DNA of 63,901 nucleotides, filler included, from Nitrospirae bacterium CG2_30_53_67 (GTDB lineage: Bacteria > CG2-30-53-67): the NCBI GenBank assembly GCA_001873285.1. It is 6 parts of 6 records of this genome, joined end to end, with 100 filler letters (N's around TTAATTAATTAA, not from the genome) between each part and the next. Parts side by side here need not be neighbours in the genome. Positions count along the whole stretch, not along the records: positions 54,522 to 63,901 come from MNYV01000171.1; 5 more parts are not named here. One strand, 5' to 3'. Below are positions 10,472 through 61,272 of this stretch, piece after piece. How positions within the stretch are numbered: the stretch's first letter is position 1; each line of letters opens with the position of its first letter. Below the pieces are notes generated by a model that was not told where the DNA came from, did no database searches, and worked only from the letters and a program-made list of their open reading frames with translations. The translations under genes were made by a program, and so were the position numbers.

Positions 10472-10571
10472 NNNNNNNNNNNNNNNNNNNNNNNNNNNNN
10501 NNNNNNNNNNNNNNNTTAATTAATTAANNNNNNNNNNNNNNNNNNNNNNNNNNNNNNNNNNNNNNNNNNNN
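10472..10571. other. Artificial contig linker; also at 20562-20661, 31116-31215, 41369-41468 and 54422-54521
   Basis: 100-nt N-run/TTAATTAATTAA/N-run with stops in all six frames. Confidence 0.98.
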
Positions 10572-19662: not shown

Positions 19663-19695
19663 AAAAAAATCCTACCCTTCGCTCTAAAGAGTAGG
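19663..19695 (-). terminator. Intrinsic terminator, expression platform of the fluoride riboswitch
   Basis: Minus strand CCTACTCTTTAGAGCGAAGGGTAGG followed by ATTTTTTT; overlaps the aptamer 3' CCTAC. Confidence 0.85.
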
Positions 19696-19743
19696 AGTCA
19701 TCAGCTTCGTTTGGGGAAGCAGTCAACGGCGAACTCCATCGCC
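19691..19743 (-). ncRNA. Fluoride riboswitch (crcB motif)
   Basis: GGCGATGGAGTTCGCC…GCTTC-CCCAAAC-GAAGCTGATGACTCCTAC: P1, P2 and GGAGTT/GACTCC pseudoknot all present; TTGACA promoter box at 19779-19784. Confidence 0.95.
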
Positions 19744-19838
19744 GACTTTTTTTAAACATATCAAAACAAAAGATGTCCTGTCAATAAAAATCAAATCCCT
19801 TCCCGGCTGGTCTAAAATGGGATATCGCAATAACCGTT

Positions 19839-20542: not shown

Positions 20543-20661
20543 TCGTTTTCACCTTTAAGGTNNNNNNNNNNNNNNNNNNNNNNNNNNNNNNNNNNNNNNN
20601 NNNNNTTAATTAATTAANNNNNNNNNNNNNNNNNNNNNNNNNNNNNNNNNNNNNNNNNNNN

Positions 20662-21292: not shown

Positions 21293-21567
21293 AAAAAACC
21301 CCCGTCTCAAGCCTTTTTAAAAGCCAGGGACGAGGGCTGAAAATTTCCCACGTGGTACCACCCTGTTTCAGTGAGCCAGGGACCCGACCCCGGTCACCCT
21401 TATTTCCGGCAGGATGACGGCCGCCAGCCGGCGAAGACTACGGCTGTCCTGATCAACAGGTTCACCTTCGCGACTCCGAGGCGAGTTCAGGGCGCCCTGC
21501 GCCGGCTCGCAGCATCCGCCGGCTCTCTAAGGCAGGGGGGAACCCTTACTACTCCTCTTCACAGTTT
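21293..21567 (-). ncRNA. Leu-specific T-box leader with terminator
   Basis: AGAGA bulge, GCTG distal loop, specifier GAA-CTC (21488-21483), T-box AGGGTGGTACCACG (21364-21351), antiterminator CGTCCCT, terminator plus U-run. Confidence 0.93.
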
Positions 21568-21589
21568 TTACCCTATACTACTACAAAAC

Positions 21590-28681: not shown

Positions 28682-28752
28682 GGTTCTTCTTCGTTTATTT
28701 GTAAAACTTCCAACGGGGCTTGAACCCTGATGTTTTCACCCGCTCTTTTGGA
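28682..28752. repeat. Collapsed remnant of the octamer-associated element, with one CCCCGTT-type end
   Basis: TTGAACCCTGATGTTTTCACCCGCTCTTTTGGA matches ~31362-31394; AACTTCCAACGGGG at 28705-28718. Confidence 0.65.
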
Positions 28753-31115: not shown

Positions 31116-31215
31116 NNNNNNNNNNNNNNNNNNNNNNNNNNNNNNNNNNNNNNNNNNNNTTAATTAATTAANNNNNNNNNNNNNNNNNNNNNNNNNNNNN
31201 NNNNNNNNNNNNNNN

Positions 31216-31402
31216 TCCAGGGGTCGAGGGGTCAAGGGTTCAAGTGAGATACTGAAACGCAAGCAAAATCTTCAGAGAAAAACACTGGAACCCTTGGACC
31301 CTATAATCCTCGGCCCCTTATGATTTTAGCACTTCACTTGACCCCTGGAATCCTTGACCCCTTGAACCCTGATGTTTTCACCCGCTCTTTTGGAGATGAT
31401 CC
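31216..31402. repeat. Octamer-repeat elements (two adjacent pieces)
   Basis: GGGGTCGA GGGGTCAA GGGTTCAA GTGA… and TTGACCCC TGGAATCC TTGACCCC TTGAACCC TGATGTTTTCACCCG. Confidence 0.8.
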
Positions 31403-38051: not shown

Positions 38052-38076
38052 CCCCGGAATACACTAAAAAATATAA

Positions 38077-38118
38077 GGGGTCAAGGGGCCAAGGATTCCA
38101 GGGGTCAAGTGAAGTGCT
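38077..38118 (+). repeat. Octamer-repeat element end
   Basis: GGGGTCAA GGGGCCAA GGATTCCA GGGGTCAA GTGAAGTGCT. Confidence 0.75.
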
Positions 38119-38231: not shown

Positions 38232-39403
38232 TCATGGCGATTCCTTTTTCTCCCGTGGGGAGGCCGGGAACCTGGATTGAATCTCTTCGAGTGTCTTTTG
38301 AAAGAGATCCATCATGGGGCCGTTTAGGGCCACCGCACGGCGGGCTGCATCCAGGGCCTCCTCTCCCCTCCCCTGTTCCATGAGCACCTGGGCCAGATTA
38401 TTCCATGCCGGCCCGGAATCCGGATGCAGGCGGGCCGCCTGCCTGAAGGCTTCCTCCGCAGTCGTGAGTTCACCCGATGCATAAAAACTATTGCCCAAAC
38501 CCATGAGTGCGCCGAGGCTCCCGGGCCAGCGCGCGAGCGCCGTTTGATAGCCGGTCACCGCGGCAGTCCATTGCCGGGCCTGTTCCAGTCCCAGCACGGC
38601 CATGAGATAATCTTCCTCATCGGCGGTGGCAGGAAATTCTTCCGGCCGTAAAACCAGCAGTCCCCAATACCCGCTCCTTAACCAAGTGTTTTTAAAAACC
38701 CGGAAGGATAAGTGTTCCCGTGGTGTTTTTCCGGAATGAAGGATGATGGTATCTTCAGGCAGGTCATAGCCGACGACGACTGCATAATGCCACATGGGAT
38801 ACCAGGAGAGTCCAAGATTCTGAAGGACCATGACCGGATGACCGTCGGCCACCTCCGTGAGCATGGCCTCGATCCCTGAAATCGGATAGGCGATCCGGCC
38901 GTGACGCCGTGCCGCGCTGATCAGCGAAGTCTGAAGGCTCCCCTTACGGACGGGCGTATAGACCTCGGATTCGAGTTCTTCAGGGGTGACCGAGATCCCG
39001 CGGGAACGGAGCAGCATGGCGAGGGCCGCAGGACCGCATTGATGCTCACTCTGGGCGTAAAATGGAACCGCGCTGATCTCAGTCTTGGCAGGTCTCCCCT
39101 CACCATACGCCGGCAAGGAGCCTGATCGCAGCCCGGTACAGCCGGTAGGCAGGATACTCAACAAGAGGACGAGCAGGGCGCAGCAACATCGGCAATCAAC
39201 CCCGTTACTCACCGTCTTGTAAGACGGGGCTTTCTTGCTGATCTGATATTGCATATGCCATTCACCACATTGGAAGTTCACTGTTGCGTGACAGGAGTCT
39301 GAACTTCTGACAGAGGAAACTTCTAACGTGGTTCATCCCCAGCCTGAAGTCCGGGGCTTTCTGGTGTAACGGGGTCAACACGGTAGTCCGCTCTACGAGC
39401 CAT
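38232..39403 (-). pseudogene. PA2778-family C39 cysteine peptidase-TPR lipoprotein, interrupted in its signal peptide
   Basis: QCGPAALA, WHYAVVVGYD, TPRs; original ATG at 39403 (GGAG RBS) returns to frame when the 175-bp insert and one TSD are removed. Confidence 0.8.
39200..39374. mobile_element. 175-bp CCCCGTTAC…GTAACGGGG element with a nested 67-bp element
   Basis: TSD TCAA (39196-39199, 39375-39378); inner element 39265-39331 with 12/14 TIR and TSD TTCA. Confidence 0.9.
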
Positions 39404-41313: not shown

Positions 41314-41468
41314 CTTATTAATTCATGGAAAAGAGCATGGTTGAAAAACGGCAGCAGGACAAGTGCCANNNNNNNNNNNNNNNNNNNNNNNNNNNNNNNN
41401 NNNNNNNNNNNNTTAATTAATTAANNNNNNNNNNNNNNNNNNNNNNNNNNNNNNNNNNNNNNNNNNNN

Positions 41469-50838: not shown

Positions 50839-50995
50839 GGGTGTGTGACAAATTTATGGGTAAATATTTCTCTGAGAGCGTCATTCCCCGACTCGATCGG
50901 GGAATCCAGACATTAGAAACTGGATTGTCCGGTCAAGCCGGACAATGACAACCATATATAATCCTGATGTGTACCCACATTTTTGTCGCACACCC
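50839..50995. mobile_element. 157-bp MITE with 24-bp TIR and 9-bp imperfect TSD, carrying a REP doublet
   Basis: GGGTGTGTGACAAATTTATGGGTA / TACCCACATTTTTGTCGCACACCC; flanks GCCCGCCAC / GCCGGCCAC. Confidence 0.8.
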
Positions 50996-54421: not shown

Positions 54422-54521
54422 NNNNNNNNNNNNNNNNNNNNNNNNNNNNNNNNNNNNNNNNNNNNTTAATTAATTAANNNNNNNNNNNNNNNNNNNNNNN
54501 NNNNNNNNNNNNNNNNNNNNN

Positions 54522-55198: not shown

Positions 55199-55438
55199 CC
55201 CCGTTACAACCGTTGGAAATTTCATCATAGGCAAAGTCAAAATCGATCAGTTCGTCAACCTTCCTCAGCGGATGGTTCTTACGGACTCGCTTATCAATGT
55301 TGATGTCAACATAGAACAAACTGCTCTGCGGTGGTTGCTGCACTCCCATCATGGCTCTCGACTCCTCTCGTCATGATTAATTGTGCAGTATAATAGCATG
55401 ATTCAACGCTTCGAGCTATATGATTTGGGCAACAGCCC
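55199..55438 (-). mobile_element. Truncated IS1182-family element (left end plus ~45 codons), cut off by a CCCCGTTAC end
   Basis: End GGGCTGTTGCCCAAATC at 55438; ATG 55352 gives MMGVQQPPQSSLFYVDINIDKRVRKNHPLRKVDELIDFDFAYDE. Confidence 0.8.
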
Positions 55439-60292: not shown

Positions 60293-61000
60293 ATGATGGA
60301 TGACCGTAGAACAAACCTTCCCATCAAGCAGTGGCCTGAAGAGGAACGCCCAAGGGAAAGACTGCATCAATATGGAGCGGAATCCTTGTCTGATGCCCAG
60401 CTCATGGCCATTCTCCTGGGAACCGGGGATGCCGGCAGAAGCGCTGTGGGTGTGGCCGTGGATCTTCTCAGCCGGTACCGGGATCTCAGGGAAATGAGCA
60501 CGGCAGGGGTTTCGGAGATTTGCAGGGTTCCGGGGATCGGCAAGGCCAAGGCCGCCCGCCTTCTTGCGGCCATGGAACTGGGGAAAAGGATCCAGGCATT
60601 TCCCTTGAAAGAGGGAGATCTGATTCGGGGAAGCCGTGACGTTTTTGAGTCCTGTCATCCCTATCTCAGAGACCTGAAAAAAGAGGTTTTTCGGGTGGTG
60701 CTGTTGAATGGGAAGAACAGGGTCATACGCACCCTGACCATATCGGAGGGGAGCCTGACCGCCTGTCTCGTGCATCCCAGAGAGGTTTTTGCGCCGGCCA
60801 TTCGCGAATCCTCGGCTTCGGTCCTCCTGATCCACAATCATCCGAGCGGGGACCCGACTCCGAGCCCCGAGGATATCGAAATGAACAAGAGACTCGTTCA
60901 GGCCGGTGAACTCATCGGGATCAAGGTCCTGGACCACCTGGTGATCGGAGACGGAAGGTATCTCAGTTTCGTGGACCAAGGGCTGATGACCGCAGGGTGA
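60293..61000 (+). CDS. radC: RadC / JAB-domain protein
   Basis: ERPRERL, GIGKAKA HhH, HPREVF, HNHPSGDPTPSPED, LDH. Confidence 0.96.
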   Translation: MMDDRRTNLPIKQWPEEERPRERLHQYGAESLSDAQLMAILLGTGDAGRSAVGVAVDLLSRYRDLREMSTAGVSEICRVPGIGKAKAARLLAAMELGKRIQAFPLKEGDLIRGSRDVFESCHPYLRDLKKEVFRVVLLNGKNRVIRTLTISEGSLTACLVHPREVFAPAIRESSASVLLIHNHPSGDPTPSPEDIEMNKRLVQAGELIGIKVLDHLVIGDGRYLSFVDQGLMTAG

Positions 61001-61008
61001 AAACATCA

Positions 61009-61272
61009 GGGGTCAAGGGTTCAAGGATTCCAGGGGTCAAGTGAACCCCGTTAGAGGTTGTCCTCTAACGGGGTGAAGTGCTCAAACACTACAAGGAGTT
61101 AAAGGAAGGGCCCCAGTCTTATCAATTATGATTGGAGATTTACAAAATAACAAAAAGATTTCCTGGAGAAGAAAGATAGTGATATCGAGGAGGTTGAGCG
61201 GATGCTCAAGGCACTGATCAAATCACTGGAAAACAAACACTTGACCCCTTGAACTCTGGAATCCTCGAACCC
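61009..61272 (+). pseudogene. Decayed four-helix-bundle (23S rRNA IVP / bAvd-like) gene between inverted octamer arrays
   Basis: MLKHYKELK…SYQL*LEIYKITKRFPGEER* then DIEEVERMLKALIKSLENKHLTP*; four octamers on each side in opposite orientation. Confidence 0.8.
61046..61073. mobile_element. 28-bp palindromic micro-insertion
   Basis: TGAA-CCCCGTTAGAGG-TTGT-CCTCTAACGGGG-TGAA; empty site GTCAAGTGAAGTGCT at 38104-38118. Confidence 0.9.

Follow-up and report, generated by a model that had tools for sequence, protein, structure and literature searches.

Cross-phylum miniature inverted-repeat elements with 4-bp target duplications and coding members that carry a single GIY-YIG nuclease gene

The Ssn nucleases, GIY-YIG proteins with a single domain and a length of 94 aa, bind single-stranded hairpin repeats and cut just upstream of them (PMC11893778). 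Their genes are flanked by their own hairpin repeats, SRM/NTS (Chenal et al. 2025, Nat Commun, PMC11893778), and the main text of that work likens the repeat-gene-repeat arrangement to an insertion sequence and suggests domestication. How the repeats were dispersed was left open in the 2025 study, and the terms 'target site', 'duplication' and 'Patescibacteria' do not occur in its main text (PMC11893778).

Here, we analysed a window of 63,901 nucleotides comprising contigs C145-C149 and C160 of Nitrospirae bacterium CG2_30_53_67 (G000; 183 contigs, 2.37 Mb). On C160, positions 61042-61077 of the window read TGAA CCCCGTTAGAGG TTGT CCTCTAACGGGG TGAA, which on direct reading is a perfect 12+4+12 palindrome between TGAA duplicates. 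The minimal element of 28 bp, delimited by reading and folding, occupies 61046-61073 with inverted 12-bp termini CCCCGTTAGAGG around TTGT, and is bordered by a left (61042-61045) and a right (61074-61077) target copy, all three features being without an assigned strand. A search of the whole window for exact matches to the 12-mer arm returned two occurrences, which are the two arms of the palindrome itself. Folded as single-stranded DNA, the 28-mer gives on either strand a 13-bp stem at about -15.8 kcal/mol (z about -7.5; 0 of 200 shuffles as stable); the stem includes a pair between the final A of the left TGAA and the initial T of the right one.

The surrounding host repeat also exists in the window without the palindrome. 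One empty site lies on the plus strand at 38103-38118 (...GGGGTCAAGTGAAGTGCT...), with its TGAA at 38110-38113, and another lies in the inverse orientation on the minus strand at about 31329-31343, with TTCA at 31334-31337. Since these empty copies hold one TGAA and no insert, the inserted unit amounts to 32 bp, namely the 28-bp palindrome and one extra TGAA. They are found on C148 and C147, that is, on contigs other than that of the palindrome, because the window consists of six contigs joined by N runs. Compared with these other host-repeat copies, the 28-mer is therefore an insertion, and the insertion with TGAA duplication that the earlier note on this DNA had proposed is borne out. A joint that skips 32 bases at 61040-61073 was present in the contigs of all four runs searched, where the multicopy nature of the host repeat makes the joint unassignable to a locus. 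The public runs that contain part of the window are labelled as groundwater or aquifer metagenomes. In an Rfam scan of the window, the hairpin and the host repeat were covered by no family, and the two matches obtained were unrelated.

The arm of the host repeat that carries the palindrome spans 60988-61082 on the plus strand (GGGTGAAAACATCAGGGGTCAAGG...TCAAGTGAA continuing into GTGCT) and lies downstream of an ORF at 60293-61000, which we take from its sequence to be RadC-like. A 33-aa ORF remnant at 61151-61249 may derive from the tail of a four-helix-bundle protein of the 23S rRNA intervening sequence type, and a Pfam search with it gave no meaningful match.

The 28-mer almost certainly belongs to a family of miniature inverted-repeat elements that share termini and target duplications. 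In G000, exact matches to the 10-mer CCCCGTTAGA number 40, while a reversed-letter control has 3, and the corresponding counts are 50 and 4 in the sister species G001, 103 and 8 in G004, and 26 and 4 in G015. Inverted pairs of this terminus in G000 delimit elements of 28, 29, 31, 32, 65, 80, 94 and 108 bp. Identical 4-mers flank the element in 15 of the 26 paired rows listed for this genome, including two independent duplications beyond the host-repeat types, CAAG around an 80-bp element on C41 and TAGA around a 94-bp element on C135. Pairs without duplication are located on C53, C94, C158, C84/C98, C109 and C182.

Within the window, the relatives of 67, 100 and 175 bp previously listed as separate members are real and make up a single nest. 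An outer 104-bp element with termini CCCCGTTAC.../...GTAACGGGG is split by an inner 67-bp element (CCACATTGGAAGTT...AACTTCTAACGTGG, 39265-39331), giving a joint span of 175 bp at 39200-39374; neither has an assigned strand. The outer element is flanked by TCAA (39196-39199 and 39375-39378) and the inner one by TTCA (39261-39264 and 39332-39335), and the nesting of elements that had been noted is thus confirmed. A search of five relatives with the DNA of the locus gave no match. As for the two lone ends that had been reported, the right terminus AACTTCCAACGGGG at 28705-28718 (plus strand) is genuine and abuts a host repeat at CTTG; it shares both element type and host position with the complete 80-bp element at G000:C41:2897-2976, which has the CAAG duplication. 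The other, at 55199, is an 8-mer indistinguishable from chance, with 6 matches in the window against 1.87 expected, 5 of them inside the two element loci. ORFs that adjoin lone ends elsewhere in G000 (C43, C91, C100, C109, C182) look like housekeeping genes.

Comparison with related genomes provides empty sites outside the host repeat. The 94-bp element (G000:C135:16080-16173) lies in single-copy DNA with TAGA duplicated, and the orthologous site in G001 is empty: the flanks there are contiguous, with ...GGAGTAG joined directly to TGGAAAG..., while in G000 the 94 bp stand between ...AGAGTAGA and TAGAGGAAAAA.... The 108-bp element of C109 is also present in G001 and is absent from the shorter orthologous spacers of G003 and G004. 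At the C182 locus, G001 is rearranged and the orthologous comparison is uninformative. The pattern CCCCGTTAGA-N(4-30)-TCTAACGGGG was found in 4 of 41 related genomes (G000, G001, G004 and G015), with no control matches. The interiors of the G004 hairpins, such as GAGGC-GTA-GCCTC, GATGG-GTA-CCATC and GACG-TGCAG-CGTC, differ and yet remain self-complementary, which indicates that the stem is kept rather than the interior sequence. Flanks in the relatives are often not duplicated because the hairpins sit within other local repeats; clean cases in G001 are a 43-bp element with TTTA and a 33-bp element with TCAA.

A scan of one genome per species for CCCCGTTAGAAGTT extended the family well beyond these relatives. 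It returned at least 121 loci, many of whose single matches must be due to chance, and the matches listed contain 56 distinct inverted-pair elements of 28-282 bp. Perfect 4-bp duplications flank 31 of these 56, with 9 more at 3 of 4 positions, against an expectation of about 0.2 and counts of 0-3 in shifted controls. The preference for TNAA targets is likewise upheld: written in one orientation, T[GCA]AA accounts for 24 of the 31 perfect duplications among the matches listed, the remainder being CATA (3), CAAG (2), TAGA and CCAG. In four small genomes (0.6-0.9 Mb), perfect duplications flank 30 of 33 pairs. One of these four, G044, favours TATG/CATA over TNAA and has a slightly different terminus (..GAAGC). 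As labelled, the hosts among the matches listed are mostly candidate-phyla bacteria (Patescibacteria), together with Omnitrophota, Planctomycetota, Elusimicrobiota and others. The family is thus one of cross-phylum miniature inverted-repeat elements with termini 5'-(C/T)CCCGTTAGA(A/G).. and a 4-bp duplication that is usually TNAA. The terminal inverted repeats common to the family measure 13 bp, and the 28-mer has perfect arms of 12 bp. Together with the coding members described below, the series with CC[CA]CGTTA termini runs across genomes from 28 to about 310 bp, in line with the size series that the window had suggested.

The longest members encode a protein. G042 holds two 282-bp elements with the same termini, both flanked by TGAA duplications and each with one GIY-YIG ORF, and G044 holds a decayed 280-bp and a 281-bp element, duplicated at CATA and TATG, again with one GIY-YIG ORF each. 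These ORFs of 86-93 codons consist of the GIY-YIG domain alone (PF01541, E = 1.7e-15 and 2.1e-17). The best solved relative of the element protein is the UPF0213 protein 1zg2 (E = 7.9e-5), and a comparison with NCBIfam gave just a sub-threshold match to a group I intron endonuclease. Homologues at E <= 1e-10 are present in 131 of the 301 genomes sampled from the phylum of these hosts, often in several copies and sometimes with stop codons. Inverted repeats surround the gene in 17 of the best 30 homologue loci, and 9 of these 17 have the core CGTTAGA. One of the 41 relatives, G023, also has a terminus-flanked copy of the nuclease gene. Paralogous GIY-YIG genes have other inverted termini, for example CCCCGTAGAGAA..., CCCGCCTAAGTTTTTGG... 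and CCCCCACACCA..., and the 130-bp elements of the family show only slight homology to the gene-bearing element beyond the 13-bp termini.

To these genomes we added 80 metagenome loci encoding relatives, found with an alignment of 13 element proteins and selected by intact protein matches. An inverted repeat encloses the gene in 73 of the 79 loci having both flanks, and 68 distinct loci of the 80 contain the NCCCGTTA...TAACGGGN pair 274-312 bp apart (median 280). Of these 68 coding loci, 39 are flanked by a perfect 4-bp duplication and 9 more match at 3 of 4 positions. Coding members of 274-312 bp are therefore made up of two termini and a single ORF for an 86-93 aa GIY-YIG nuclease, and the protein-coding relatives for which the earlier note had proposed to look do exist. 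In 27 of the 68 loci, the ORF ends at a TAA that forms part of the right terminus, and in 36 the reading frame is still open at the last base of the element, which would place the stop in the flank. ATGAA precedes 20 of the 68 loci, and in 10 of these 20 the ATG of the flank opens the frame. When the loci are written in the direction of the gene, 21 duplications read TGAA and none reads TTCA; because the loci were chosen by intact protein matches, this orientation bias may reflect selection for usable start or stop codons and not mechanism. Residues of catalytic type are invariant across the 13 aligned element proteins.

We infer, with a confidence only slightly better than even, that the family is mobilised by the GIY-YIG nuclease that its own elements encode. 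Of the 10 genomes with a homologue, 4 contain the hairpins, and of the 31 without one none does (41 relatives; Fisher 0.002, with kin that are not independent). Among element-rich small genomes, the GIY-YIG profile is found in 3 of 4, a Y1 transposase in 1 of 5, and DDE_Tnp_1 in 0 of 5. The window itself holds no cognate enzyme, as had been stated before, and no intact terminus-flanked nuclease gene was found in it or in G000 as a whole, which suggests that the copies there are relics or were moved in trans. Several points count against the nuclease. In G000, the element protein has as its best relative a truncated copy that lies next to a tRNA gene (42.6% over 47 residues). Among the 22 small GIY-YIG matches in G000, G001, G004, G015 and G042, the two G042 copies are the ones flanked by termini. 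The transposase searches were limited to PF13701, PF01797 and PF01609, in genomes that are incomplete assemblies.

The foremost alternative is that an unrecognised insertion sequence of DDE type, one that makes 4-bp duplications, gave rise to the elements as its ordinary MITEs, and that the GIY-YIG gene is a passenger or a settled selfish gene. Inverted termini with a duplication of fixed length are an established hallmark of DDE transposition, and an autonomous partner would not be expected in fragmented assemblies. Elements of the IS1380 and piggyBac groups have termini starting CC(C) and 4-bp duplications (TTAA for piggyBac), and the CC-starting termini of the present family are reminiscent of them. 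Against this explanation, DDE_Tnp_1_4 (PF13701) was absent from all four genomes searched (G000, G001, G004 and G015), and PF01609 from all five small genomes, each of which contains 5-26 termini. Among the matches listed (at least 121 loci, 80 of them with 3.5-kb flanks), paired termini were never separated by more than 900 bp, nor was there any long element in the stretches examined in G004 and G015. Candidate pairs 1-4.5 kb apart in the latter two genomes enclose ordinary genes and no transposase. Two further observations concern the gene itself. Even for proteins with no more than about 50% identity, the ORF takes up the interval from one terminus to the other exactly, to the base. Classes of terminus also cluster on the protein tree, poorly resolved as it is (10 changes, where shuffling gave a mean of 15.8 and in 0 of 200 cases so low a number), and such tracking of terminus type with protein clade is unexpected of a passenger. 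We consider the DDE explanation unlikely.

A second alternative concerns the shortest forms and arises from the distribution of the 28-mer in G000. The host repeat consists of GGGTCAAGG-like units terminating in TCAAGTGAA, is very abundant, and has two types of arm, continuing as GTGCT or ATACT. Across the genome, 96 GTGCT arms are empty and 7 are filled, each time with the 28-mer; 67 ATACT arms are empty and 6 are filled, each time with a 31-bp variant, CCCCGTTAGAGAG ACGAG CTCTCTAACGGGG. Six host-repeat sites thus hold the 28-mer besides the one in the window, one copy having a single base change. It is therefore conceivable that the 28-mer never moved as such, and that a longer relative inserted once, lost its interior, and was spread as a filled arm by multiplication of the host repeat or by gene conversion among its more than 100 copies. 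The strict pairing of variant and arm (28-mer 7/0, 31-mer 0/6 for GTGCT against ATACT) favours this view, as do the identical immediate flanks of all 28-mer copies and the occurrence of both variants at the same host positions in G001. Elsewhere among the matches listed, the interiors of short forms are unrelated to each other, and a longer element (L050) contains one such form, which points the same way.

However, a tree of 95 GTGCT host arms has the 7 filled ones scattered over at least five positions, which calls for more than simple vertical copying, and the filled arm of the window belongs to a host subfamily with divergent downstream sequence; vertical spread would need added recombination. 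Furthermore, 6 of the 11 elements of 45 bp or less among the matches listed, from unrelated public genomes, have perfect duplications of their own, which indicates that forms this short arise, or insert, repeatedly. Purely passive spread from a single longer insertion thus appears quite improbable as an account of the 28-mer. Still, its 7 copies need not equal 7 insertions, and spread with or by recombination between host repeats fits as well as site-specific insertion. The strict pairing is unlike what free insertion at any of the 28,894 TGAA sites of the G000 genome would predict, and it could result either from site-specific insertion with a longer recognition sequence or from homology-dependent spread among the repeat copies. 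Recombination between repeats may have contributed no less than new insertion to the spread among the host-repeat copies.

A third alternative takes the hairpins for REP-like sequences moved by the Y1 proteins that these genomes encode, which are IS200-like and RAYT-like, measure about 310-330 aa and seem to have a DnaA-C-like tail. It is close to refuted and has very little probability left: although REP/RAYT is the classic pairing of dispersed hairpins and an enzyme of their own (PMC3116915) and both Y1 genes of G004 have a CCC(C/A)(G/T)TTAGAC hairpin within 260 bp of the start codon, one of these two hairpins is a 34-bp insertion that interrupts its Y1 gene after codon 3 relative to the other copy, the Y1 genes carry different inverted flanks of their own (GGGGTCAGAC...), no such terminus is present in the 3.3-kb locus around the G000 Y1 gene, just one of the five element-rich small genomes has a Y1 gene, and REPs are established to make no target duplication, whereas these elements do. 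The same G004 insertion bears on the gene disruption that had been claimed for the window, where none is evident: a relative of the family does interrupt a gene, in another genome.

If the element-encoded nuclease is the mobility enzyme, its action could be pictured as follows. In single-stranded DNA, the two termini would pair into a stem of 13-16 bp whatever lies between them, be it 4 or 260 bases; the termini of the 282-bp element do pair when it is folded as a single strand. The A and T of the flanking TNAA copies would extend this stem, and the flanking tetranucleotides would meet at its foot. The nuclease might then recognise the stem and cut at its foot, as its Ssn relatives do on hairpin repeats. 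An enzyme that reads the stem would treat 28-bp and 282-bp members alike, which would explain how the interior can change or be lost altogether. The 4-bp duplication would be left when a TNAA target is cut with a 4-bp stagger and the host then repairs, fills in or ligates the break. Short members consisting of the termini alone may be moved in trans or may be deletion products of longer members. We know of no experiment in which a GIY-YIG nuclease moves DNA and of no GIY-YIG enzyme that joins it. The GIY-YIG fold is that of a hydrolase without known strand-transfer chemistry, so the joining step has to be assigned to host functions. The TATG/CATA targets of G044, coupled with its slightly different terminus, suggest that the nuclease may also set the choice of target.

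The transposase classes accepted for DNA elements are, to our knowledge, the DDE/RNase H-like, HUH (Y1/Y2), tyrosine or serine recombinase, and Cas1 enzymes. An element with inverted termini, target duplications and a GIY-YIG nuclease alone fits none of them, and the chance that a new class is involved is substantial. Should the nuclease be the enzyme, the lower limit of size for autonomous elements would be reset to about 280 bp, a mechanistic origin would be at hand for the hairpin repeats found with small GIY-YIG (Ssn) nucleases, and very small sequence-specific DNA tools would come within reach. A broader formulation is more tentative, and we would lean somewhat against it as a whole: the GIY-YIG nucleases of this clade would form a further transposase class; their 274-312 bp elements, with two 13-bp termini and an 86-aa gene, would be the smallest autonomous elements known; many copies would borrow a start codon (the ATG of A-TGAA) or a stop codon from the duplicated target; derivatives would reach down to 28 bp and would have spread between distant phyla in groundwater communities; and Ssn hairpins of the NTS/dRS3 type would be minimal derivatives in an end state. 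For annotation, the family accounts for many of the mini-genes labelled 'GIY-YIG nuclease family protein' and for many palindromes in groundwater and candidate-phyla genomes.

In the open literature, we found no terminal-inverted-repeat element that encodes only a GIY-YIG nuclease, although the supplements of MITE surveys and of the Ssn paper could hold the motif. Text searches for the termini gave chance matches to primers. Searches for TNAA duplications with a transposase found nothing, those for MITEs in the candidate phyla radiation only unrelated ones, and the publications seen on GIY-YIG proteins in that radiation, which were consulted in part, contained no such elements. By title, papers combining GIY-YIG, inverted repeats and duplications deal with eukaryotic elements, viruses, casposons and TnpB. 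SsnA with GIY-YIG led to the 2025 Ssn paper alone, and autonomous or MITE-like prokaryotic GIY-YIG elements to nothing relevant. The suggestion of an undescribed mobile system holds in part: motif, duplication and clade do not appear in the portion of PMC11893778 consulted, but hairpin repeats paired with GIY-YIG nucleases were published there in 2025.

The element described here is a variant of two known kinds: on the one hand miniature inverted-repeat elements, on the other the hairpin repeats associated with small GIY-YIG nucleases. It resembles the MITEs of bacterial insertion sequences in being short and non-coding, with inverted termini, a duplication of fixed length, nesting, many copies, and termini in common with a longer coding element. 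In contrast to these, the longer element measures only about 280 bp and encodes a GIY-YIG nuclease in place of a DDE, HUH, serine or tyrosine enzyme, and the shortest members, of 28-35 bp, have little beyond two termini. With REP/REPIN and RAYT systems and with IS200/IS605, the family shares dispersed hairpins that are likely read single-stranded, a small enzyme, and insertion beside a short specific sequence. By established knowledge, those systems have neither target duplications nor terminal inverted repeats, whereas the present elements have both; the 5' GTAG tetranucleotide of REPs is absent here, and the two element ends are complementary to each other, unlike the separate subterminal hairpins of IS200/IS605. 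Mobile-looking hairpin repeats of 21-27 nt that insert into other repeats were reportedly described in Nostoc (Elhai et al. 2008, Genome Research). For these small dispersed repeats we know of no description of an enzyme, a terminus family or such a target duplication.

The closest likeness is to the Ssn/SRM system as presented in the main text of PMC11893778: a single-domain GIY-YIG protein of about 90 aa and dispersed hairpin repeats of 20-50 nt, linked to each other and occurring with many specificities. In the present family, this linkage of gene and terminus is seen in genomes other than G000, in the form of terminus-bounded genes for 86-93 aa proteins that match PF01541 only. G000 holds a canonical Ssn system as well, whose Ssn-like gene is located on C25 and whose 33 NTS-like hairpins include one at 50880-50905 of the window. 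The two sets of hairpins are distinct in sequence: 0 of 15 CCCCGTTAGA hairpins match the published SRM search sequence HGTCWY..., against 32 of the 33 NTS-like hairpins taken as a positive control. The element protein aligns weakly with the Ssn-like protein of G000 (38.6% over 70 residues, E = 1e-4). The systems also differ in architecture, since the nuclease gene is bounded here by two half-sites, the inverted termini, and in Ssn, as far as the published description consulted goes, by whole hairpins. Finally, the present elements differ from the Ssn/SRM system in having 4-bp target duplications and empty sites.

The palindromic 28-mer at 61046-61073 lies within a host repeat that is very abundant in the source genome (G000), where it occurs in more than 160 places, and copies in the window are found at 60988-61082, 38060-38118 and 31300-31370. 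The repeat is made up of GGGTCAAGG-like octamers and has two homologous, inverted arms ending in TCAAGTGAA followed by either GTGCT or ATACT, with 96 + 7 arms of the first type and 67 + 6 of the second in G000. The repeat is often found at the ends of contigs, and the fragmentation of the assembly is probably due to it. After some copies come short ORF remnants ending in ...MLKALIKSLENKHLTP, which may be the tail ends of proteins of the four-helix-bundle (23S rRNA intervening sequence) type; a 33-aa remnant beside the repeat had no meaningful Pfam match.

In three of four public runs, position 61000 was joined to 61238 within one contig through 98 different letters. The spacer 3' of the RadC-like gene, which holds both the host repeat and the 28-mer, thus varies among samples or strains.

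Further hairpins of the family were found at other sites. In the related genome G004, three stand in tandem (L024:610-710, contig C193) with a period of 33-34 bp, as a repeated cttg-hairpin-tg unit adjoined by a GGGGTCTGACCC motif. Two hairpins with family termini in G000 (C53:20247-20275 and C94:14597-14625) differ in their interiors, each of which is self-complementary, and follow similar upstream sequences (...CCNAATACAANNNNGCACGC). Flank duplication is absent at both, and they may represent the same site in paralogous loci.

Translation signals of the gene-bearing elements were examined in 68 metagenome loci (within L282-L361). An A precedes the element in 37 of these, which together with a TGAA target gives ATGAA, and the ATG of the flank opens the frame in half of the ATGAA cases (10/20). 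At the other end, 36 of the 68 loci show no in-frame stop codon up to and including the last base of the element. The target appears to supply translation signals to the gene-bearing elements.

The loci L030 (G000:C69:15253-16233) and, in G004, L032 and L035 encode IS200-like Y1 proteins some 310-330 aa long, and by eye the C-terminal part of these proteins looks like the helix-turn-helix domain at the C-terminus of DnaA. The genes are bracketed by inverted repeats of their own, GGGGTCAGAC...GTCTGACCCC, and the L032 gene, with L035 as reference, is split after its third codon by a 34-bp CCCATTAGAC hairpin element.

The window also holds an ordinary T-box leader (21323-21571, minus strand, 100 bits) and an equally ordinary fluoride riboswitch (19685-19752, minus strand, 53 bits). 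Its paired N runs (10472-10571, 20562-20661, 31116-31215, 41369-41468 and 54422-54521) are contig joins, so features lying across them are not genome neighbours.

Numerous small GIY-YIG genes belonging to the same clade have an intact or decayed tRNA gene on one side and, on the other, a repeat of that tRNA's 3' portion (L160, L162, L164, L169, L171, L173, L180 and L182; G000:C161:20053, the sister species G001, the related genomes G004 and G015, and the small genome G042). This arrangement suggests insertion into tRNA genes, which would be a second lifestyle of such mini-genes. By its sequence features, a canonical system of the published Ssn/SRM type, comprising GIY-YIG single-strand nucleases and hairpin repeats, is also present in G000: a 105-aa GIY-YIG gene (C25, ORF L161:1432-1806, likely start near 1489) is directly followed by a hairpin of the form (C/T)GTCATTCCCCGACTCGATCGGGGAATCC, and among the 33 such hairpins of the genome, one of them in the window at 50880-50905, 32 match the published SRM search sequence.
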